Below, piece after piece: positions 5,854 through 20,613 of a stretch of 24,000 nucleotides of DNA. The stretch spans positions 145,280-169,279 of the forward strand of contig NZ_JAPWBZ010000004.1 of assembly GCF_041433685.1 (NCBI RefSeq), read 5' to 3'. Under the pieces are notes generated by a model. That model did not search any database. It was not told the origin of the DNA and saw only the letters and a program-made list of their open reading frames with translations. The position numbers and the translations under genes were made by a program. This DNA comes from Gemella sp. 27098_8_92. GTDB taxonomy: Bacteria > Bacillota > Bacilli > Staphylococcales > Gemellaceae. Position 1 is the stretch's first letter. Each line of letters starts with the position of its first letter.

Positions 5854-6375
5854 TTATTTATTCTCTGTAATATTTACAGTTATTTCACCTTTACTATTGC
5901 GTCCTAGTGTGTATGAATAACCTTTTTTATTTTCTTTTATTAAACGAGCAATTTCTGCTTCTGCATATTTTTTAGCTTCTTCTGAAGTTTTGAATGCTCC
6001 AGATGTCGTTGTTGAAGGTGTTTTGTCATCTTTCTTATCACTTGAATTGTTATTGCTACTATTATTTGTACGTCTATTATTTGATGTAGTGTTGTTATTA
6101 GATGATTTATTTGCAGATGAGTTAGAATTTTGACTTTCACGATATTTTTCTTCATCACTTTTAGCTTTAGATGTTGATGATTTTGAATCATCGTTATCAT
6201 CTCTATCTTTTTTATCCTTATCTTTTGATTTAGATGTCGATGTCGTGTTGTTATCTTTTTTCTTACTTGCATTATCTCCACCTGAGAAATAGCTAATTGT
6301 TAAAAATAAAGCACTACATAAAAATATCGCTAGAACAATTCCCCATAATACTTTTAGTAATCTATTATCTTTCAT
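5854..6375 (-). CDS. Membrane-anchored protein with a long S/N/D/K-rich low-complexity linker and a small C-terminal domain (paralog A)
   Basis: N-terminal anchor MKDNRLLKVLWGIVLAIFLCSALFLTISYFSGGD, about 90 aa of low complexity, then FKTSEEAKKYAEAEIARLIKENKK. It is a clear paralog of 10915..11433. Confidence 0.7.
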   Translation of the reverse strand: MKDNRLLKVLWGIVLAIFLCSALFLTISYFSGGDNASKKKDNNTTSTSKSKDKDKKDRDDNDDSKSSTSKAKSDEEKYRESQNSNSSANKSSNNNTTSNNRRTNNSSNNNSSDKKDDKTPSTTTSGAFKTSEEAKKYAEAEIARLIKENKKGYSYTLGRNSKGEITVNITENK

Positions 6376-6620
6376 TTTTTATCAATCCTTTGTTTTTTTA
6401 TATTAATATTATAATACTCTTTTGAAAAATTTTCTACTATTTTTCTCACTATTTGCTTAATATAAGCTTAACATAGTTACATTAAGTTTAATTAAAAACT
6501 TATCTATAAAATCTCTTACCCAAAATTTATTTTTCATGAGAAAAAACCCTATTTTTTTCGATACATTTAGTGTCAGAGGCCAAAGACAAATAAAAAATAA
6601 ATACAAAGGAGATTTTTATT

Positions 6621-6815
6621 ATGAAATTACTTAAAAAAACATTACATTTAAACTATTCAGAGCCGAAAGGCGACAAACAAGTTGTTAAAAGTTATTCATT
6701 CAATGTTAACGCTGATACTGATGACACTAAACTTAAAGAAGTAGGCGACGAAATCGCGAAATTAGTATCTAAAAACATTGATAATACTACAATTAATACT
6801 AAATCACTAATTTAA
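6621..6815 (+). CDS. DUF1659-like small protein
   Basis: 64 aa with SD AAGGAG 9 nt upstream. The pattern L.L.Y....G....KSYSF.NV..D..D..L.EVGD.I..L fits my recollection of DUF1659 proteins. It sits in the usual position, directly upstream of a DUF2922 gene. Confidence 0.6.
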   Translation: MKLLKKTLHLNYSEPKGDKQVVKSYSFNVNADTDDTKLKEVGDEIAKLVSKNIDNTTINTKSLI

Positions 6816-6830
6816 TAGAGGAGAATTATT

Positions 6831-7043
6831 ATGGAAAAAACATTAAATATTTTTTTTACAACTACAAATAAAAAAACTTATCATATTTCTTTAGCTCATC
6901 CTAAAGATAGTTTAACTAAAGAAGTTATCCAAGGTGTCGCTCAAAAAATTATTGACGCACAATGCTTTAACAGCGATAAACACACACTTGTCGCTTTCAA
7001 AAAAGCAACTTATGTAACTCGTGAAGAAAACGAGATTCTATAA
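6831..7043 (+). CDS. DUF2922-like small protein
   Basis: 70 aa with SD GAGGAG. MEKTLNIFFTTTNKKTYHISLAHPKDSLTKEVIQGVAQKII...ATYVTREENEIL follows the DUF2922 pattern (KTL.L.F.T..GK...I.....K..L....V...M..II). Confidence 0.65.
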   Translation: MEKTLNIFFTTTNKKTYHISLAHPKDSLTKEVIQGVAQKIIDAQCFNSDKHTLVAFKKATYVTREENEIL

Positions 7044-7050
7044 TTAAGCA

Positions 7051-7082
7051 AAAAAGGTGCGATATCTATCGTACCTTTTTTA
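7051..7082 (+). terminator. Rho-independent terminator after the DUF2922 gene
   Basis: The stem pairs 7054-7063 with 7068-7077 (AAGGTGCGAT / ATCGTACCTT, one G.U pair). The loop is 4 nt and a T-run follows. Confidence 0.65.
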
Positions 7083-7145
7083 TGCGTATATTATTCTCTA
7101 GAAAAGTATTAAAGAAAAAATCATAAATTCTAAGGAGGGGTTTTT

Positions 7146-7298
7146 ATGGATATTTTGAATTTTATCAACACCGTAGGTTTCCCTATTTTTGTTGCTGTTT
7201 TTTTCTTATTAAAACTAGATAAAACTCTGCAAAATATTGGGAAAAGTGTAAATGATTTAACCGAAATCATCAAAATAAAACTTAACGCTAAAGACTAA
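7146..7298 (+). CDS. YvrJ-family small membrane protein (50 aa), absent from the supplied ORF track
   Basis: My own translation: MDILNFINTVGFPIFVAVFFLLKLDKTLQNIGKSVNDLTEIIKIKLNAKD*. Strong SD TAAGGAGGGG at 7131-7140, 5 nt before the ATG. It has one TM helix then an amphipathic tail. The N-terminal ...NVGFPI...FLL...L motif resembles YvrJ. Confidence 0.6.
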   Translation: MDILNFINTVGFPIFVAVFFLLKLDKTLQNIGKSVNDLTEIIKIKLNAKD

Positions 7299-7395
7299 TT
7301 TCTTAGACTTAGTCACAATCAACTTACAAAATTATATTTTTGTGGGTACTTTATTTTTCTATTAGTAAACTTATTATTCGATAAGGAGGCATATT

Positions 7396-8073
7396 ATGGC
7401 AACTCAACAAACAATGGTTAATTGGGCAAAAGATCAAATTTATAAATGGATAGATATGGATGGTGCTTATGGAGCACAGTGCGTCGACTTAATTATGGCT
7501 TACATCAAAAACTTCGCAAACTTTCGTGTATCTGGTAACGCCATTGACTACTTGACAAACACTCTTCCTAATGGGTGGCGCCGATATCGTAAAGGAGAAG
7601 ACACCATTGCCCCTGGTGATATCGCAATATGGCATTGGGGCGCATGGGATAAATACGGACACATCGGTATTGTTATTGATGTTCGTAGTAATATTATTAC
7701 TTCTGTCGAACAAAACGTTGACGGCACCCCAGAGCATGGTGGCGCAGCAAAAATTATGGCGCGCGATGATACTTATCTTGTAGGTTTTATCCGCCCATCT
7801 TATGATACTGATGAAAGTTGGACAAGAATACCTGAACAAGGAAGATTTATAGTTGAAGTCACAGAAATTAACGTTCGAACAAAACCTAGTATTTTTAGTC
7901 AAAAAGTCGACTCTTACACTGCTGGAGAAAAGGTTTTTTACGACAGTTATGTTATCAATGAAGGGCTAATTTGGATTAGTTATATTTCTTACAAAGGAGA
8001 ACGTCACTACCTCGCTACAGGTGCTTGTAAAAATGGACAAAGAATAAGCAACTGGGGACGATTTTTGCAATAA
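7396..8073 (+). CDS. CHAP-domain peptidoglycan hydrolase with C-terminal SH3b (SH3_5-like) wall-binding domain; phage-endolysin architecture, no signal peptide
   Basis: The CHAP catalytic Cys context is DGAYGAQCVDLI and the His context is GHIGIVI, similar to the staphylococcal LysK CHAP domain. The C-terminus ...WISYISYKGERHYLATGACKNGQRISNWGRF resembles the SH3b of PlySs2-type lysins. SD AAGGAGG at 7385-7391. Confidence 0.9.
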   Translation: MATQQTMVNWAKDQIYKWIDMDGAYGAQCVDLIMAYIKNFANFRVSGNAIDYLTNTLPNGWRRYRKGEDTIAPGDIAIWHWGAWDKYGHIGIVIDVRSNIITSVEQNVDGTPEHGGAAKIMARDDTYLVGFIRPSYDTDESWTRIPEQGRFIVEVTEINVRTKPSIFSQKVDSYTAGEKVFYDSYVINEGLIWISYISYKGERHYLATGACKNGQRISNWGRFLQ

Positions 8074-8095
8074 TTCATATATAATCATGTGAAAC

Positions 8096-8131
8096 AAAAA
8101 AAGAAAGATACTCTTACCTATCTTTCTTTTT
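8096..8131. terminator. Rho-independent terminator after the lysin gene (bidirectional flanks)
   Basis: Stem AAGAAAGATA (8101-8110) / TATCTTTCTT (8119-8128) with an 8-nt loop. An A-run precedes it and a T-run follows. Confidence 0.75.
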
Positions 8132-8773
8132 AATATTTACCCCCAAAGGTCCCTGACCACCAATTATTAACCCTACATTATGTTGATGAAAGATTATAAT
8201 TCAATAGAGTCCGCCTTAGCGGCCAAGGCGCTTTAGGCAAGGGGATTATCAAGGTATTTTTATCAAAAGTTGGCGGTTTAAATCAACTTTTAGAAATACT
8301 CAAAATTTTTAAATTTACTGTTTTTCTCTTATCTCTATATTAAGTGTATCAGAGTTTCCGTAATAAATCAACACCTATTTATTAAAATATTTTGTTTATT
8401 ATATAGTAGTCTGAAGTTTTTATATTTTGTTTTTTAGACTAAAATCAAAATATTAATAATTATTTTCACTTTATGTATACCATAATAAAACAAACTTTTA
8501 TTTATCTTTACGTTTTCATAAATTTTTATTTTTATGTAAATAATAATAATTTTAAAATTTATAAAATATTATTTTTTTATGTTTTTTTATGTTTAAAGAT
8601 TAAAATTTTTATTTTTCTTTATCTAGTGTTTTTCAATAATATATATTTTCACTCCACTAACATACACCTGTATTTTTCACAAACACCTCCCTAAAGCAGC
8701 CACCTTTTTTATCTTCCTTAATTTTTCTAATTATGTTACAATGAAAATAACTTTAATACCGAGGAGAAACGTT

Positions 8774-9657: not shown

Positions 9658-10789
9658 ATACCAATTCTATTTTTTCTCTAAATATGTCTGGTTTTTCCGC
9701 TATTAAATTATAAATACGGGCCACCTTAATGTCTTGTACAAAGTACATGCTGTTAGAGCTGTTTAACACCGAAACTAAAGTTATCTTTTCTTCTTTGTTA
9801 ATTTCGCGTATCAACCCTGATTTCTCACTTTTTACCGCAAGCACACGAAATACCTTCGTTCCGAAGATCTTTTCATAATCATCACGAGTAGTATTTGTTA
9901 AAATATGGATTAACAAGCGTTGGATTTTCTTTTTGCTATACCTTTTTGTAATGACTAACTCTACCAACTCTCCATAGTTTTTCGCACTAAGAGCCGCTTC
10001 GAAAATTCTATTTTCCAAACCTTCTCTCATGTCATAGATGTTTTTTAATCCATCTTTTCCTAAAGAGATAATTTTATACTTTAATAATTCGAAAAAATCT
10101 TCTTCCGTTGGTATTTTACTAGCTCTAATATCCTCAAGTAGTTCTTTTGATATATAACTCGTTATCTCTTCTGACATAATATTTTTTCTAATAGCAGTAG
10201 CACTCAAGTGCTGTACCATTTCTAAATTTTCATTATTAAGATTTTGCCCTGTTCTTTTTACAGGTACTAGTTTTATATGTGGTGCAAATTCTTTTATCAT
10301 CTTGTAATAGCTATACGCTAGATTAAAATTGGGATTATTGTTGGAAATTCCATACAACTCGCCATTGATTTTGGCAAAACTATATCCTTGCTTTAATAAC
10401 TCTCGGTATTTTTCAGGAGGCGTTTCCTGTTGCTTTTTGTATATTTCTTCAAAAATTTCAATATCTATTTCTTCTGTTCCAAAAATAAGGTGTGTTGTCC
10501 CCGCACCATCAAGGATTTCAATGCTTTTCCTTGCAAAATCATCACTATAAGCAACGCTTCCCAAATAAGGTAAGGCGATAACTAAACTACAACCACTCTT
10601 TACAGCTTCCTTTGCACGAGTATAGCCATCTGTAATAGCAACTTCACCCCTTTGGGTGAAATATTCACTCATAACACAGACTATTTCTCCATCAGCTCCA
10701 TTAGCAGCTATTAAATTTTGTGCTTGTTCTATTAAGTATTTATGCCCACTATGGAGAGGATTAAACTCCGCGATTATTCCTATTCTCAT
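9656..10789 (-). CDS. tmcAL: tRNA(Met) cytidine acetate ligase (YlbM/UPF0348 family)
   Basis: The N-terminal nucleotidyltransferase motif IIAEFNPLHSGHKYLI matches the HxGH-type motif of B. subtilis YlbM/TmcAL. Length and downstream blocks (MSEYFTQRGE, ALPY, FGTE) also match. Confidence 0.85.
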   Translation of the reverse strand: MRIGIIAEFNPLHSGHKYLIEQAQNLIAANGADGEIVCVMSEYFTQRGEVAITDGYTRAKEAVKSGCSLVIALPYLGSVAYSDDFARKSIEILDGAGTTHLIFGTEEIDIEIFEEIYKKQQETPPEKYRELLKQGYSFAKINGELYGISNNNPNFNLAYSYYKMIKEFAPHIKLVPVKRTGQNLNNENLEMVQHLSATAIRKNIMSEEITSYISKELLEDIRASKIPTEEDFFELLKYKIISLGKDGLKNIYDMREGLENRIFEAALSAKNYGELVELVITKRYSKKKIQRLLIHILTNTTRDDYEKIFGTKVFRVLAVKSEKSGLIREINKEEKITLVSVLNSSNSMYFVQDIKVARIYNLIAEKPDIFREKIELV

Positions 10790-10914: not shown

Positions 10915-11433
10915 CTAGTTATCTTTTTTTGCACTCGTATCTTCAAAAATGTCCACAGTCCAACCAAGAAGAGTACCATCTTCTGCACTTACCTTACTGA
11001 TAGAAAATTGTCTTGGTTTTTTATCTTCTTTTACCAATCGTTCTATCTCTTTATTACCGTATTCTAGCGCTTCACTTTGAGTTTTAAACACTTTTCCAGT
11101 TGTTCCAACCCCTTCATTATGAGAAACTTTTTTACCATTATATTCTTTAGTTCCTACATAATTATTTTTATTGCTCGCTTGATTATTTGCACCTTGGCTT
11201 CCTATTATATTGCCAGATTCTTGTTTTTCTTGAGTGTTTTTACTATTTTGAGATTTGTATCTTTCCTCGTCAGTATTTTTATCTTGTTTTTTATCCAATT
11301 TTTGAGCAGAGGTTTTTTCAGATTTCTTAGAATCTCCTCCACTAAAGTAACTATATCCTAAAAATACTATGCAAACAACAAATATCGCTAATACAACTCC
11401 CCAAAGTATTTTTAATAATTTATTATTCTTCAT
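10915..11433 (-). CDS. Membrane-anchored protein with a Q/K/N/E-rich low-complexity linker and a small C-terminal domain (paralog B)
   Basis: MKNNKLLKILWGVVLAIFVVCIVFLGYSYFSGGD and FKTQSEALEYGNKEIERLVKEDKK align with the termini of the 5854..6375 product. The lengths are almost identical (172 vs 173 aa). Confidence 0.7.
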   Translation of the reverse strand: MKNNKLLKILWGVVLAIFVVCIVFLGYSYFSGGDSKKSEKTSAQKLDKKQDKNTDEERYKSQNSKNTQEKQESGNIIGSQGANNQASNKNNYVGTKEYNGKKVSHNEGVGTTGKVFKTQSEALEYGNKEIERLVKEDKKPRQFSISKVSAEDGTLLGWTVDIFEDTSAKKDN

Positions 11434-16019: not shown

Positions 16020-18014
16020 CTATTCTTTTATAATTCTATAATATATTCTTGAGGTAATTAGATATACTATTAGATAGAATACCCCAAAGACTGCTATTGT
16101 CACAGCTAAAGCTATTAAGAAAACATTATTATCTGTCGCTAAGAATAATTTTAATATTTTTTCAATAAATGGATATGCTACTATCGTGTGTAGTGTCGCT
16201 ATTGCTAGTGGGGCAAAGAAGATCATCAATACCTGACTTCTTATGCTTTGTTTGATTTGTCTGTCGGTTAACCCCACTTTACGCATAATTCCAAATTTAC
16301 CTTTATCTTCGTATCCCTCTGAAATTTGTTTATAGTACATTATTACTACTTGAGAGACTACGAAAATCATACTTATAAACATACCTATAAATAAGAATGA
16401 TGCATAGAAACCTTTGAAATTTATTTCATTTTCTGCTTTTCCTTCGATATTTATATTACCCTCTTTTTCTAGTTGTTTAAAGTTTTCTATTACTTTCGCT
16501 TCTTTTGACTTATCACTAATATTGAAACCTACATAGTTGAAGATTTCACCTTCACCGTCTGAAATATTCAGTTTTTTCTTCAGAGCTGACTCTATTTTCT
16601 TAACGTCAGCATTATCTTTTACTACAACATAATATGTATCCATAATGTTAGCTGCAGCTGTGCCTAAAGCGCCTGGAAAGTCTGTTAACTTTTCTTTTAT
16701 TTTTAAATTTACACCTTGGACCGCTATTTCATTTGCTTCATATTTACCTTTTTTATCGATAAATAATAAAGCTTCTCCATTGTTTAAAGTTTTTTGTTCT
16801 TTTGATACTTTATTGTAGTCTTTTAATTCAAGCACAACAATAGATTTAATCTTATCAAACGAACCAGTAAACTCTGATTCATAGTTAATCTCGGTCCCGT
16901 TTAGACGCCCTACTACATTCAACATATTATATGATACTAAATCTTTTGTTTCTACTCCCGCATCTTGCGTGGCTTTTTTTACATTTTTTTCTATTTCAGC
17001 CAACTTACCTTCTGTTGAACGATAACCATTTATTATTATGTCTCTTGGAAAACGTGTATTATATGCATCTTCACTACCTGCATAGAGCGCTGATGTTGTT
17101 CCCATAGTTACAAGAACCATCGTTGATAGTATACAAATATTAGCAAGCCCTACAGCATTTCGTTTCATTCTGTATAAAAGCCCTGAAACACTGATAAAGT
17201 TCTTTGGTTTATAATAAAAAGTCTTGTTATTTTTCATCAATTTTAGAACAGTTATACTTACCGCCATAAATATTAAATATGTCCCGAATATCACCGCTAA
17301 AACTGCAATGAAAAACATTGTTATAGCTTTTATTGGATTTTGTATAGTTTGAGCTAAATAATACCCATATCCTGTTAATCCTAATCCTAAAATAGCTAAA
17401 ATAAAACGTGCTTTTGGTTCGCGTTCTCCATTATTTTCTTCTTTAAGAAGTGCTACTATTTTTAGACGAGAAATCTTTATTACTGTGTAGATTAGTAATA
17501 AGAAGAAAATTCCTCCGAATAATAAGATTGTTAAAAATACTGCGATTGGTGTTATTACAAAACCAAAACTTACTCCTGCTGTAAATAATTTTAACAATAC
17601 TAAAAGCATTAGTTTATCGAATAACAGACCGAACGCAAGTCCAAACACTAATGTTATCACCGCGATAAAGATAGTTTCTAATATTAAAATACGTGCTATT
17701 TGTTTTTTTGTCATACCTAATACAGAATATAATCCAAACTCTCGAACACGACGTTTAATTAGGAAACTATAAGTGTAAAACAGGAATATCGCTGAAAATA
17801 TCGCAATAACTATAACCCCAAACCCGAGAACTTGTTTTGTTGCACTTATACCTTGAGGTAATTTATCCAGATTTTTCCCTAATGATAATGATGTTAGTAT
17901 ATAAAATGATGCAATAGTGAAAATCGTCGATAAAATATACGGTAGTATAAAACGTTTATTTTTTACTAAATTGTTTAGCGCAAATTTGCTATAAAATAAA
18001 TTCATGTTACTCAC
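16020..18014 (-). CDS. BceB-type ABC transporter permease (FtsX-like, 10 TM with a large extracellular domain)
   Basis: 664 aa. Four TM helices, a roughly 230-aa hydrophilic domain (residues ~310-535), and further TM helices on each side. It overlaps the upstream ATPase gene by 8 nt. Confidence 0.9.
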   Translation of the reverse strand: MSNMNLFYSKFALNNLVKNKRFILPYILSTIFTIASFYILTSLSLGKNLDKLPQGISATKQVLGFGVIVIAIFSAIFLFYTYSFLIKRRVREFGLYSVLGMTKKQIARILILETIFIAVITLVFGLAFGLLFDKLMLLVLLKLFTAGVSFGFVITPIAVFLTILLFGGIFFLLLIYTVIKISRLKIVALLKEENNGEREPKARFILAILGLGLTGYGYYLAQTIQNPIKAITMFFIAVLAVIFGTYLIFMAVSITVLKLMKNNKTFYYKPKNFISVSGLLYRMKRNAVGLANICILSTMVLVTMGTTSALYAGSEDAYNTRFPRDIIINGYRSTEGKLAEIEKNVKKATQDAGVETKDLVSYNMLNVVGRLNGTEINYESEFTGSFDKIKSIVVLELKDYNKVSKEQKTLNNGEALLFIDKKGKYEANEIAVQGVNLKIKEKLTDFPGALGTAAANIMDTYYVVVKDNADVKKIESALKKKLNISDGEGEIFNYVGFNISDKSKEAKVIENFKQLEKEGNINIEGKAENEINFKGFYASFLFIGMFISMIFVVSQVVIMYYKQISEGYEDKGKFGIMRKVGLTDRQIKQSIRSQVLMIFFAPLAIATLHTIVAYPFIEKILKLFLATDNNVFLIALAVTIAVFGVFYLIVYLITSRIYYRIIKE

Positions 18015-18759
18015 CTGCCTGCATTAATGTTAGTGTGTCATTAATTTTTTGGAACATTTCGTTATTTGTTGAATTTCCTTTTCTGATTTCATGGAAAACA
18101 ACACCATCTTTTATAAATAACACTCTTTTTGCACGAGCTGCTGTTTTTACAGAGTGCGTCACCATTATAAGTGTTTGCCCTGCTTCATTTAATCTGTCAA
18201 AGACTTCTAATAATTGGTCTGTAGATTTTGAATCTAATGCTCCTGTTGGCTCATCCGCTAGGATTATCGCCGGATTTGTTATAATTGCACGAGCAACTGC
18301 CACACGTTGTTTTTGACCACCTGATATTTCATAAGGATATTTATCGATAAGTTTTTCTATTCCAAGTGGTTTTATTACTTTTTCTAGTCTTTTCTCCATA
18401 TCTTTATAGTTTTTATTCGCTAAAACCAGCGGTAGTAGTATATTATCTTTTACTGAAAAATTATCAAGTAGGTTAAAATCTTGGAAAACAAATCCTAGAT
18501 TATCTCGACGAAAATCAGCTAAATCTTTATCTTTTAGTTTGCTAAGATCTTGACCTTTTAATAGAACACTTCCACTTGTTGCTTTATCAAATGTTGCTAA
18601 AATATTTAATAGTGTAGTTTTCCCACTTCCACTTTCACCCATAATAGCTACATATTCATTGTTATCAACAGCGAAATTTACATTTTTTAATGCCTCTGTA
18701 CTTTGTGTACTTAATCTTGTTGTGTATACTTTTCTTACGTTGTTTACTTCTAATAACAT
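18007..18759 (-). CDS. BceA-type ABC transporter ATP-binding protein
   Basis: Walker A GESGSGKTT, signature ISGGQKQRVAVARA, Walker B ILADEPT, H-loop VTHS. This is the MacB/BceA-like NBD. Confidence 0.9.
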   Translation of the reverse strand: MLLEVNNVRKVYTTRLSTQSTEALKNVNFAVDNNEYVAIMGESGSGKTTLLNILATFDKATSGSVLLKGQDLSKLKDKDLADFRRDNLGFVFQDFNLLDNFSVKDNILLPLVLANKNYKDMEKRLEKVIKPLGIEKLIDKYPYEISGGQKQRVAVARAIITNPAIILADEPTGALDSKSTDQLLEVFDRLNEAGQTLIMVTHSVKTAARAKRVLFIKDGVVFHEIRKGNSTNNEMFQKINDTLTLMQAGE

Positions 18760-18878
18760 TGTTAATCTCCTCTTTTCATCCTAATCGACTAATTGTTTCC
18801 ACTTACTTAATCGATCTATTGTTTCTTTGTTACAACTATATTGTATCTTATATTTTTTTGTCGTTCTATCGATTTTCC

Positions 18879-18915
18879 TTACAAAAAAGCCTGTAATCTT
18901 ACACTTTTGTAAGAT
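18879..18915. promoter_or_regulatory. BceR-type response-regulator binding region upstream of the BceA-like gene
   Basis: The perfect palindrome ATCTTACA-CTTT-TGTAAGAT (18896-18915) matches the TNACA-N4-TGTAA motif reported for Bce-type regulators. A second pair, TTACA-N8-TGTAA, lies at 18879-18896. CTTACA recurs with a 20-bp period. Confidence 0.6.
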
Positions 18916-18958
18916 TGCAGACTTGTTTGTTATCCTACTTTTTTAATTCTTACTACTA

Positions 18959-19945
18959 TTACTCCCTAAATCTATCTTCTTCAGGGAATATTATTTCTAC
19001 TTTAGTTCCAACATTAACCTTCGAGGTAATTATTATTTTATGCCCTAGATTATCTAACGTCTTTTTACAAAGGTATAACCCTAGTCCACTAGATTTTTTC
19101 TCATATCTTCCATTAAATCCTGTAAAACCTTTTTCGAAAATACGCGGTAAGTCTTCTTCGCTTATTCCTAAACCATTATCTTCTATAATAAGTTTATTTT
19201 TTTCGAAGAAAATACTTATCTCACCACCTGTTTTCGTGTATTTAATCGCATTACTTAAGATTTGTTCAAATGCAAATCCTAGCCATTTTTTATCACTAAT
19301 AACAAATGTTTCATGTGGAACATAATTTAATTTTATCTTTTTATTTATAAATAATGGAGCATATTTTTTTATATTATCTTTTGTTACACCAGCTAAATCT
19401 GTTCTTTCTATAAGATAGTCCGAACTCTCACTACCAAGCCTTAAGTACGTCAGTACCATCTCTACATAGCGTTCTATTTTGAATAATTCTTGTTTTACTA
19501 TTTTCACATCTACTTCTTCATTGTCTAATAGAAAGTTTAGCGCAGCTATTGGGGTTTTAATTTGATGTACCCACATACTAAAGTAATCTTCTATCTCTGT
19601 GTTCTTTTTATACGCTTGATGATTAAGTTTTTCTACTTCATCATGTAATCTTCTTATAATTTTATGATAATATTCAACTCTTACATCTAAACTTCGTGGT
19701 AAACCTTCCATATCATTTAGTATATGATTTTCTAAAAATTTTAATTTTTTATAGCTATCTTTATAGTTATAAAAATCCACAACACTCGTCAGAAGTGCTA
19801 ATATAAAACAAAAACTCCCACCATAATACAACGCTTCAAAAGGCAAAGAATATAGATAAAAAATCCCAAAGAAGACTAATATGAAGCTTACAAATAGCAA
19901 ATAGACTTTTATGTTTTTCTTTAAATAATTCGCTAAAATTTTCAT
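18959..19945 (-). CDS. BceS-type intramembrane-sensing histidine kinase
   Basis: Two closely spaced N-terminal TM helices with almost no extracellular loop. H-box WVHQIKTPIAAL. N and G boxes SNAIKYT, DNGLGI and GLGLYLC. Confidence 0.9.
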   Translation of the reverse strand: MKILANYLKKNIKVYLLFVSFILVFFGIFYLYSLPFEALYYGGSFCFILALLTSVVDFYNYKDSYKKLKFLENHILNDMEGLPRSLDVRVEYYHKIIRRLHDEVEKLNHQAYKKNTEIEDYFSMWVHQIKTPIAALNFLLDNEEVDVKIVKQELFKIERYVEMVLTYLRLGSESSDYLIERTDLAGVTKDNIKKYAPLFINKKIKLNYVPHETFVISDKKWLGFAFEQILSNAIKYTKTGGEISIFFEKNKLIIEDNGLGISEEDLPRIFEKGFTGFNGRYEKKSSGLGLYLCKKTLDNLGHKIIITSKVNVGTKVEIIFPEEDRFRE

Positions 19946-20613
19946 TATACTATGTATCCTTTTCCTTTTTTAGTCGTTATAAACTCATCTACTCCTATAC
20001 TTTTCAACTTCGCTCTTAATCTATTAACGTTAACAGATAAAGTATTCTCATCTATAAAATTATCACTTTGCCATAAAGCGTTGATAATTTCTTCACGACT
20101 TACTATTTTTTCGCGATTTTCTAACAATACAGTTAATATTTTACTCTCATTTTTTGTTAGTTCCGCCAACTCTTCTCCACATTTGATTTCATCTCGACTC
20201 ATATCGAAAATTACATCTTTATATACTATTAGATTTGTTCCGCTATTAAAGTTGTAAACACGTCTTAATAACGCTTCTATTTTCGCTTTTAATACTACTA
20301 ATTTGAAAGGTTTTTCTATAAAATCATCTGCACCGATATTCATCGCCATTACTATATTCATATCATCGTTCGCCGAAGAGATAAAAATAATAGGCACTTT
20401 AGAAATTTTTCTTATTTCCTCGCAAAAGTAGTACCCATCAAAATAAGGCAAGTTAATATCCATAAGCACCAAATCAGGAGAGTATTCAACAAATTCATGC
20501 ACTACATTTTGAAAATTTTGCACTTCACATGTGCTATACTGCCATTTTTCTAAATAGCCCGCTATTGAATTTGATATAATCTCGTCATCCTCAACTATCA
20601 TAATTTTATACAT
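19945..20613 (-). CDS. OmpR-family response regulator (BceR type)
   Basis: Receiver domain IMIVEDD....DLVLMDINLP, then a winged-helix output domain LTKNESKIL..L........SREEII..LW...........LSVNVNRLRAKL. Its stop overlaps the kinase start as TAATG. Confidence 0.9.
   Translation of the reverse strand: MYKIMIVEDDEIISNSIAGYLEKWQYSTCEVQNFQNVVHEFVEYSPDLVLMDINLPYFDGYYFCEEIRKISKVPIIFISSANDDMNIVMAMNIGADDFIEKPFKLVVLKAKIEALLRRVYNFNSGTNLIVYKDVIFDMSRDEIKCGEELAELTKNESKILTVLLENREKIVSREEIINALWQSDNFIDENTLSVNVNRLRAKLKSIGVDEFITTKKGKGYIV

Follow-up and report, generated by a model that had tools for sequence, protein, structure and literature searches.

We analysed a four-gene cassette in a 24,000-nt stretch of the genome of Gemella sp. 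27098_8_92 (NCBI RefSeq GCF_041433685.1, contig NZ_JAPWBZ010000004.1, positions 145,280 to 169,279 of the forward strand), referred to here as the window, in which genes for a DUF1659 protein, a DUF2922 protein, a small YvrJ-family membrane protein and a peptidoglycan hydrolase (the lysin) follow one another. We read this cassette, at roughly even odds, as a domesticated, cell-owned holin-endolysin module that is controlled by an alternative sigma factor, attenuated by a hairpin and used for controlled autolysis or release of cell contents. As listed in Table 1, all four open reading frames (ORFs) lie on the same strand, each with a strong Shine-Dalgarno (SD) sequence, and all four proteins scored above the curated gathering cut-offs of Pfam, which were used to decide family membership. 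DUF2922 follows DUF1659 after 15 nt and has its own SD, which is the arrangement of the SroAB-type adjacent pair discussed below.

Table 1 Features of the cassette and its control region (window positions).
Feature	Position	Strand	Details
Conserved promoter/leader block, including SD	6550..6616	+	80-85% conserved, all Gemella and Gemelliphila loci
-10-like element CGATACATTTAG	6559-6570	+	Within the conserved leader block
Palindrome TGTC-N3-GGCC-N3-GACA	6571-6588	+	18-mer TGTCAGAGGCCAAAGACA
DUF1659 protein (64 aa), SroA-like	6621..6815	+	Pfam PF07872, E 1.4e-7, 31.7 bits (cut-off 24.1), residues 3-63
DUF2922 protein (70 aa), SroB-like	6831..7043	+	Pfam PF11148, E 3.7e-20, 72 bits (cut-off 25.5), full length
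Intrinsic-terminator-like hairpin and T-run in the DUF2922-YvrJ gap	7050..7081	+	15-nt arms 7050-7064/7067-7081, 93% complementary; fold z -3.3
YvrJ-family membrane protein (50 aa), putative holin	7146..7298	+	Pfam PF12841, E 1.2e-9, 37.9 bits (cut-off 29.5)
CHAP+SH3_5 peptidoglycan hydrolase (225 aa)	7396..8073	+	Pfam CHAP E 3.6e-13, SH3_5 E 3.1e-12
A+T-rich hairpin and T-run after the lysin, putative operon end	8100..8131	+	AAAGAAAGATA-CTCTTACC-TATCTTTCTTT-TT, read directly from the sequence

The cassette is real and no prophage lies nearby. Of the other large ORFs of the window, 26 were searched against Pfam and NCBIfam and contained no integrase, terminase, capsid or tail gene; they encode ABC transporters, TetR, MerR, GNATs, exonuclease III and a BceAB-like transporter with a two-component system. 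No tRNA was found in the window and no attachment site (att)-like repeats flank the cassette. A preliminary description of this DNA, made from the letters alone, had reported the four ORFs with their positions, strand, strong SDs and signal-less lysin, had named the three small-protein families and had noticed the lack of a prophage, and on all these points it was borne out, the family assignments by profile searches.

In the scan of genome contigs, which used a narrow search pattern and reached Gemella and Gemelliphila only, the four genes were found intact and in the same order in 12 of 12 Gemella loci (G. haemolysans, G. bergeri, Gemella sp. GH3 and several metagenome-assembled genomes, MAGs), so the cassette is not a chance arrangement. 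At least four local gene arrangements surround it in these 12 loci. It is preceded in the window by a 173-aa gene on the minus strand and followed by DUF1963 and a minus-strand HIGH_NTase gene, while in G. haemolysans-type loci HIGH_NTase, a 172-aa gene and a 173-aa gene, all on the minus strand, stand before it. One MAG (L014) has a plus-strand DUF1963 gene upstream, and the G. bergeri cassette lies between genes for a tRNA-binding protein and a 786-aa protein on one side and a minus-strand fructose phosphotransferase system on the other. Amino acid identity within Gemella was highest for YvrJ (80-87%), followed by the lysin (59-72%) and the two DUF proteins (56-67%). The ratio of nonsynonymous to synonymous substitution rates (dN/dS) was 0-0.26 in nearly every informative pair between Gemella lineages, whichever of the four genes was compared, with 0-0.26 for DUF1659 and 0.02-0.2 for DUF2922 in informative pairs. 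All four genes are therefore under purifying selection and form a conserved unit; being intact and collinear in 12 of 12 loci with differing contexts and low dN/dS, the cassette is no decaying scar. The adjacency of the lysin thus extends beyond one strain and does not mark the edge of a prophage scar, the outcome that the preliminary description had named as fatal to its proposal.

Several insertions and breaks were seen within the Gemella cassette. An IMG/VR contig (UViG_3300008330_000052, locus L059, positions 9673-9830) carries a Gemella prophage inside DUF2922, at about codons 47-50 (window ~6970-6985). It contains early genes, a CI-like repressor with helix-turn-helix and S24 domains and a large serine recombinase, and directly after the recombinase comes what is left of the 3' end of DUF2922, followed by the hairpin, YvrJ and the lysin, so that the operon is split from its promoter. 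By analogy, this insertion recalls the phage "regulatory switches" of other Firmicutes. In two strains of the window's species, DUF2922 (P0124 and P0128; L061, 538-708) ends after FNSDK (codon 50, ~6978-6980) and continues with identical foreign sequence (tail ...AFTNSC); the contig is 1.5 kb long, the insertions are apparently real, and the opposite strand of the foreign sequence encodes, by eye, a protein with PKD-like repeats. Since this break falls at the same spot as the prophage junction, codon ~50 of DUF2922 may be an insertion hot spot. A further truncated DUF2922 (P0132) was rejected as an artefact of a heavily frameshifted public assembly of the same species (L060; GCA_015473165.1, BNJT01001587.1), which shows identical gene order with nearly every gene fragmented.

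The lysin can be classed as a phage-type endolysin by its domains, its catalytic Cys and His and its lack of a signal peptide. The catalytic domain begins at about residue 20 and no hydrophobic leader or signal peptide precedes it. The protein matched many PHROG endolysin families, best phrog_1309 (E 2.9e-42), and C29, H89 and E105-N107 were invariant in a homologue set that includes a prophage endolysin (P0107). Its close homologues are Gemella proteins and its relatives at 45-48% identity are genuine phage enzymes, and one distant homologue is encoded 3' of a Phage_holin_1 gene where a prophage ends. The G+C content of the lysin gene (0.39-0.43) lies above that of its flanks. A homologue with 45% identity (P0093, loci L008-L010) was found on contigs of 77-240 kb beside an RNA-polymerase-beta-like gene and an NAD-dependent DNA ligase; these contigs carry many ORFs without a family match and possibly belong to jumbo phages of oral cocci.

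The evidence supports YvrJ as the holin, the way across the membrane for this signal-less enzyme, as judged from sequence and gene position. The Gemella protein matched PHROG 4898, which is annotated as "holin" (E 6.4e-13), and it has the sequence and position expected of a holin, with a hydrophobic stretch at about residues 6-23, a K/D/E-rich tail and a gene upstream of the lysin. Among the other holin families, Pfam searched at E up to 1 returned none, the YvrJ family being its only hit. In GenBank phages, YvrJ homologues were found in 42 records at 42-50% identity, nearly all of them small podophages of the Bacillus cereus group. In phages DK1 and LY3 the YvrJ-family gene lies between the tail lysin and the endolysin, which is the holin slot because phi29-like phages keep the holin there. 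ORF coordinates on viral contigs showed that the YvrJ-family gene abuts an endolysin gene or lies within a few bases of it, and the downstream partners, GH25+PlyG-CBD, phage-lysozyme and Amidase_2 enzymes, belong to unrelated phages. The earlier suggestion that the small proteins form a holin/antiholin-like or chaperone set is supported for YvrJ, by its PHROG match and its place in phages, and finds no support for the DUF pair, which was not found in phage lysis modules and which occurs without YvrJ or a lysin.

To determine how the module is composed outside Gemella, metagenomic contigs were surveyed with a clostridial/bacillar YvrJ profile, using hidden Markov models built for this analysis; at least 510 loci were confirmed and 80 kept. 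DUF2922, nearly always with DUF1659, stood immediately upstream of YvrJ in 28 of 61 loci with at least 700 nt of upstream sequence, and downstream in two more, so the trio is a neighbourhood that recurs in Firmicutes (30 of 61 informative loci), as the preliminary description had stated. Twenty-two trio loci extended at least 700 nt past YvrJ on its downstream side, and in 10 of them a peptidoglycan hydrolase was directly adjacent (9 of 21 when one duplicate was removed). Together with the plasmid modules of Peribacillus, Parageobacillus and Clostridium, this puts the co-occurrence of trio and hydrolase far above chance, which the preliminary description had asked to be examined. Pfam-checked hydrolases beside metagenomic trios were of the Amidase_2, Amidase_3, M15 and GH25 families, making five catalytic families when Gemella is counted, and 15 of 16 hydrolases adjoining such modules outside the window lacked a signal peptide.

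The individual arrangements were diverse. In Gemelliphila asaccharolytica a minus-strand XRE gene, a 109-aa sigma protein with region 4 only and a lysin of Amidase_2+CW_7 type are followed by the conserved promoter, DUF1659, DUF2922 and YvrJ. A Peribacillus asahii plasmid has the order ComK-like gene, DUF1659, DUF2922, YvrJ, Amidase_3 and a short tyrosine recombinase, and Parageobacillus plasmid pNCI001 has the same order with an M15/VanY peptidase in place of Amidase_3. On a plasmid of Clostridium sp. CM028, a minus-strand recombinase gene is followed by a sigma-70-family gene, YvrJ, a 51-aa ORF, DUF1659, DUF2922 and an Amidase_3+SH3_3 hydrolase; C. felsineum p239 carries YvrJ, a sigma-70-family gene, DUF1659 and DUF2922, and a high-G+C clostridial contig (L029) carries DUF1659, DUF2922, an Amidase_2 gene, a membrane protein and a sigma region-4 protein. 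A literature search found no paper joining DUF1659, DUF2922, YvrJ and lysins.

Sigma factor genes recurred beside these modules. A sigma-70-family gene was adjacent in 17 of the 80 metagenomic loci and also in the two Clostridium plasmids, and all eight full-length sigma genes tested (six metagenomic, two from Clostridium plasmids) scored above the TIGR02937 cut-off, while none of the eight reached the cut-off of any named equivalog. In B. subtilis, the split sigma factor SigO-RsoA has three known transcription units, and yvrJ is among them (PMC8103513). In S. aureus, the DUF1659/DUF2922 pair has been named SroA/SroB, and both are direct targets of the extracytoplasmic function sigma factor SigS (bioRxiv 10.1101/2022.10.19.512975), which induces sroAB about 1000-fold, acts on it directly in in-vitro transcription and is itself induced by DNA damage (bioRxiv 10.1101/2022.10.19.512975). 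The statement in the preliminary description that the trio has no assigned function was therefore too strong. Overall its reading was supported in part, and it missed the alternative-sigma link, the conserved promoter and leader, the genus-wide conservation of the hairpin and the prior SroAB work.

Two other genes were repeatedly seen near such modules. A short tyrosine recombinase of ~183-193 aa, consisting of the catalytic domain only, adjoins the DUF1659-DUF2922(-YvrJ-lysin) module on chromosomes of Mammaliicoccus and on plasmids of Peribacillus, Parageobacillus and Clostridium (L021 4072-4623, L062 5019-5591, L063 2328-2891, L064 5255-5824, L066 2457-3035), and it may act as an invertase-type switch or in mobility. 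In Bacillaceae-type modules a ComK-like gene lies upstream of DUF1659, where there is no sigma factor (L062 2787-3293 and L064 2825-3355; also L116, L119, L133 and L144; Pfam ComK E 1.4e-5, above cut-off).

The control region of the Gemella cassette was conserved in a restricted manner. Of the intergenic region upstream of DUF1659, only about 66 nt are conserved across Gemella and in Gemelliphila, reading TTTCGATATATATARTG-TCAGAGGCCAAAGACA and then the SD. The palindromic 18-mer is unique in the window (0 expected by chance) and occurs once per Gemella locus. A scan of 6300-8500 against Rfam at E up to 1 returned nothing, so the leader matches no known RNA family. The -10-like element TTCGATATATA..GTG is common to Gemella and to the sroAB-like loci of Mammaliicoccus, and TATATA-N0-4-GTG within 90 nt upstream of DUF1659 was found in 10 of 38 dereplicated loci from many lineages as against 0.2% of control windows, a comparison whose p-value is only indicative as the motif was defined post hoc.

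Downstream of DUF2922, the hairpin that the preliminary description had placed at 7051-7082 was confirmed, with the arms, T-run and fold z-score given in Table 1, and a hairpin of differing sequence is present at the same position in other Gemella lineages. In most Gemella loci (G. haemolysans type) the DUF2922-YvrJ spacer is 44 nt long and consists of GGGAGGGAGG, a 7-bp G+C stem, a T-run and the ATG; in its predicted fold (-23.5 kcal/mol, z = -4.9) the 3' arm pairs with the SD, and the structure stops at the start codon. A spacer of this design, built on another stem sequence, is also present in G. bergeri. Because the 44-nt spacer is filled by SD and hairpin, no promoter fits into it, and YvrJ and the lysin would be transcribed only when transcripts from the DUF1659 promoter read through. 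The holin of G. haemolysans-type loci therefore appears to be braked twice, by termination and by occlusion of its SD, as far as the predicted folds indicate. The hairpin after the lysin was not called by the terminator scan, which needs G+C-rich stems. Just 3' of the window's first hairpin, at 7083-7105, stands GCGTATATTATTCTCTAG, which loosely resembles the CG(A)TATATA..(A)GTG element upstream of DUF1659 and may give YvrJ a further sigma-dependent promoter that only the window's species has.

We next considered the DUF pair. AlphaFold2 models showed the order strand-strand-helix-strand for both DUF1659 (single-sequence model; mean predicted local distance difference test score, pLDDT, 73.7) and DUF2922 (pLDDT 88.6), and the comparison of their profiles gave an in-register but weak alignment (E 1.2e-3, probability 20%). 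This alignment, together with the identical order of predicted secondary structure, suggested a common ancestry, and the two proteins may be paralogues that form a heterodimer. When both DUF profiles were searched against the sequences of solved structures, nothing scored below E 0.09, and Foldseek with the DUF2922 model against PDB and BFVD gave no match below E 0.01, the best matches being generic small alpha/beta domains or uncharacterised proteins. DUF2922 had no match in GenBank phages (tblastn with Gemella and clostridial queries) and none among 2.9 million viral contigs scanned for its motif, and its match to phrog_21372 was weak (2.8e-5). Neither protein of the pair has a signal peptide. 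The pair without YvrJ or a lysin was seen in Mammaliicoccus, where it adjoins a sarA-like gene and a short recombinase, and in two other loci (L025 and L027). In S. aureus, SroA and SroB reportedly interact in a two-hybrid assay, SroA is reported to stabilise sigS mRNA and a modest virulence defect was described (bioRxiv 10.1101/2022.10.19.512975). Since the pair occurs without lysis genes, was not found in phages and has been tied to regulation by the sole experiments on it, it is probably part of the sigma switch and not of the lysis machinery.

Each part of the cassette has a known counterpart. As in Gemella, the phi29-like podophages of the Northropvirinae (DK1, LY3, Goe4 and Aurora among others) encode a YvrJ-family protein of 49-55 aa directly upstream of a signal-less endolysin. 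Their pairs differ in lying within phage genomes between tail lysin and terminase, in having GH25 or lysozyme-type endolysins, and in lacking DUF1659/DUF2922, a hairpin before the holin and an alternative-sigma promoter. The S. aureus sroAB genes likewise run DUF1659 then DUF2922, 16 bp apart and with their own SDs (bioRxiv 10.1101/2022.10.19.512975), and the Mammaliicoccus counterpart shares its -10-like element with Gemella; unlike in Gemella, the Staphylococcaceae have only the pair, with no YvrJ or lysin downstream. To our knowledge the B. subtilis yvrJ locus has no lysin and no DUF pair, its neighbour being oxalate decarboxylase. The likeness there lies in a dedicated sigma factor of unusual type, encoded beside the YvrJ-family gene that it transcribes, in a regulon that comprises oxdC-yvrL, yvrJ and sigO-rsoA (PMC8103513). 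The region-4-only sigma fragment beside the Gemelliphila module recalls the split SigO.

Holin systems kept by the cell are also known. C. perfringens UviA-UviB-Bcn is one with a private sigma factor. S. pneumoniae, likewise an oral and nasopharyngeal coccus, has CbpD, a murein hydrolase with CHAP and SH3b domains, which is expressed from a ComX alternative-sigma promoter for regulated lysis; it leaves the cell by way of a signal peptide, binds choline and kills sibling cells. The Gemella lysin is of the same CHAP+SH3b type but lacks a signal peptide and is encoded with a putative holin, and so it should act on the producing cell, unlike CbpD. Release by a holin and a peptidoglycan hydrolase outside phages is established for type 10 secretion and TcdE/TcdL (PMC10847048, PMC13284979, PMC12150058). 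Type 10 secretion and C. difficile TcdR-TcdE-TcdL resemble the Gemella cassette, as it is read here, in a phage-derived holin, with or without a hydrolase, that is kept by the cell, and in a private sigma factor that governs release from a subpopulation or its lysis (PMC10847048, PMC12150058, PMC12485765). A putative holin and a peptidoglycan hydrolase are encoded together outside a phage in Gemella, which is the gene content of a type 10-like system. Unlike type 10 secretion, TcdE and UviB, the Gemella cassette has another holin family, no toxin or obvious cargo, an intact hydrolase and the DUF pair in addition.

From the gene content, family membership, conservation and operon signals of the cassette, and from its comparative links to phage holin slots, hydrolases and sigma factors, we infer holin activity, lysis, sigma dependence in Gemella and a role of the pair that would act together as follows. 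A dedicated sigma factor encoded outside the window would fire the conserved promoter at ~6550-6590, and DUF1659 and DUF2922 would be produced in quantity and heterodimerise. The hairpin at 7050-7081 would stop most transcripts, so that YvrJ and the lysin are made from read-through only. YvrJ, which has a single transmembrane helix near its N-terminus and a tail that is charged and amphipathic, would accumulate in the membrane and form lesions, through which the signal-less CHAP/SH3b enzyme could reach and cut the wall. The producing cell would then lyse or open its wall locally, probably in a subpopulation, and set free its contents, namely DNA, proteins and the DUF pair itself. The pair would most likely set the switch through sigma-factor feedback, as reported for SroA/SroB.

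Several observations weigh against this scheme. Neither the window nor the Gemella flanks yielded a sigma factor gene, and neither the Gemelliphila sigma fragment and amidase nor the regulators of the clostridial contig occur in any Gemella flank searched. The window version is unlike most Gemella loci: its hairpin is followed by 60 nt with a free SD, its YvrJ and lysin genes are 97 nt apart, and these longer spacers with the free SD make extra promoters for both genes possible there. A literature search found no experimental paper on any YvrJ-family protein, so the "holin" label on its phage homologues is a matter of position and annotation. About half of the trios have no adjoining hydrolase, and many metagenomic YvrJ genes follow a sigma gene without DUF pair or lysin; the gene directly after a sigma gene is in the usual position of an anti-sigma factor, and YvrJ is often found there. 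The regulatory role of SroAB comes from a single preprint and largely from over-expression, and the TATATA motif carries the post hoc definition mentioned above.

Some of these points would also fit if the genes were two or three independent units that happen to be neighbours, with the DUF pair as cytoplasmic sigma regulators, YvrJ as a small membrane regulator of that sigma factor (a mini anti-sigma factor or signal peptide) in place of a holin, and the lysin as an autolysin exported in another way. Besides the many sigma-YvrJ-only loci, the trios without adjacent hydrolase and the long spacers and free SDs upstream of both YvrJ and the lysin in the window, a sigma-70-like site lies ahead of the lysin at 7310-7338. 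We nevertheless regard independence as unlikely, because small phage genomes place YvrJ at the holin position beside three endolysin types, the adjoining hydrolases almost always lack a signal peptide, the type of hydrolase is swapped while the adjacency stays, and most Gemella loci have no room for a promoter before YvrJ. Another reading keeps the holin and lysin as working partners and makes the DUF1659/DUF2922 heterodimer, the sole candidate in the cassette, their cargo in a release resembling type 10 secretion, made in bulk before the terminator and freed by read-through YvrJ and lysin. In colicin operons, which are induced by DNA damage, the lysis gene stands behind a terminator. The layout of the cassette, with abundant products, then a hairpin, then holin and lysin, is in keeping with such a release, and S. 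aureus SigS, like these operons, is induced by DNA damage; the pair has no signal peptide, evolves faster than YvrJ, was not found in phages and is tied to the cellular version of the module, and secretion by holin and hydrolase is an established principle (PMC10847048, PMC13284979, PMC12150058). The occurrence of the pair without YvrJ or lysin in Mammaliicoccus and the two further loci, the absence of any sign of an extracellular function or of any indication of its export, the uninformative fold searches and the intracellular, mRNA-level role in the sole experimental data make the cargo role doubtful to us.

Both the phage-type nature of lysin and YvrJ and the G+C content of the lysin would be expected if the two were the last lysis genes of a decayed phage, left by accident beside an sroAB-like operon, and one Gemella YvrJ-lysin pair is indeed found in a "viral" IMG/VR contig. 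In that contig, however, the pair lies outside the prophage, which is inserted in DUF2922. With no other phage genes, att repeats or tRNA in the window, with purifying selection and genus-wide linkage in differing contexts, and with the module present on plasmids and in distant Firmicutes with other hydrolases, a prophage remnant is largely refuted and has hardly any likelihood left. It also seems very improbable that the cassette serves abortive infection, in which phage attack would trigger the sigma factor and the cell would be killed by holin and lysin ahead of phage maturation. A tightly repressed device for self-lysis, present on chromosomes and plasmids and often near small recombinases, might suit such altruistic suicide, and a prophage does target DUF2922 and split the operon. 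Yet PADLOC gave no match for the four cassette proteins or the associated regulators, no typical sensor or NTPase is present, and the flanks in the window are housekeeping and transport genes and not a defence island. These considerations leave the domesticated holin-endolysin module as our preferred reading.

Other features of the window were recorded beside the cassette. The 667 nt 3' of the lysin (8074-8740) contain no convincing ORF; they include a G+C-richer island at ~8140-8290, are very A+T-rich beyond it, are kept only in the same-species assembly L060 and have no Rfam match up to 8500. On the minus strand, 5854-6375 and 10915-11433 encode paralogous proteins of ~172 aa, each anchored in the membrane at its N-terminus and containing a long region rich in Ser, Asn, Asp and Lys. 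One of these paralogues adjoins the cassette divergently, in the window and in G. haemolysans-type loci, and it gave weak matches to PADLOC PD-T4-6 (E 1.3e-4) and to SAG1386/EF1546 surface proteins. At 16020-20613, also on the minus strand, a BceAB-type ABC transporter (FtsX permease and ATPase), a histidine kinase and an OmpR-type response regulator lie side by side, a module typical of peptide-antibiotic sensing and detoxification and apparently unrelated to the cassette.

Domesticated holin-lysin modules are of a known kind; what is new here is the composition, the control logic and the wide distribution. More speculatively, and with a low chance of being right, the cassette may represent a widespread and so far unrecognised release system of Firmicutes, carried on chromosomes and plasmids and built of DUF1659-DUF2922-YvrJ with a swappable signal-less hydrolase, a private sigma-70-family factor and a recognisable common promoter. 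As improbable as this wider claim is the manner in which such a system might work, with a bistable sigma/SroAB switch thrown in few cells, terminator read-through dosing the one-helix holin, and the heterodimer, DNA or both being freed. If such a system exists, the SigS-SroAB circuit of S. aureus and the SigO-yvrJ circuit of B. subtilis would be reduced remnants of it. DUF1659, DUF2922 and YvrJ are common Firmicute families without an accepted function, and they now have a testable role. The module also links two puzzles, what SigS controls and why SigO-RsoA drives a membrane protein of 50 residues, to a holin-lysin pair with a dosing terminator. A very small holin, a matched set of lysins and a compact promoter/terminator logic for dosing a lethal gene are practical leads. 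Gemella is an oral commensal and an agent of endocarditis, and self-lysis would bear on its extracellular DNA and biofilm, on gene exchange and on the release of inflammatory wall fragments.

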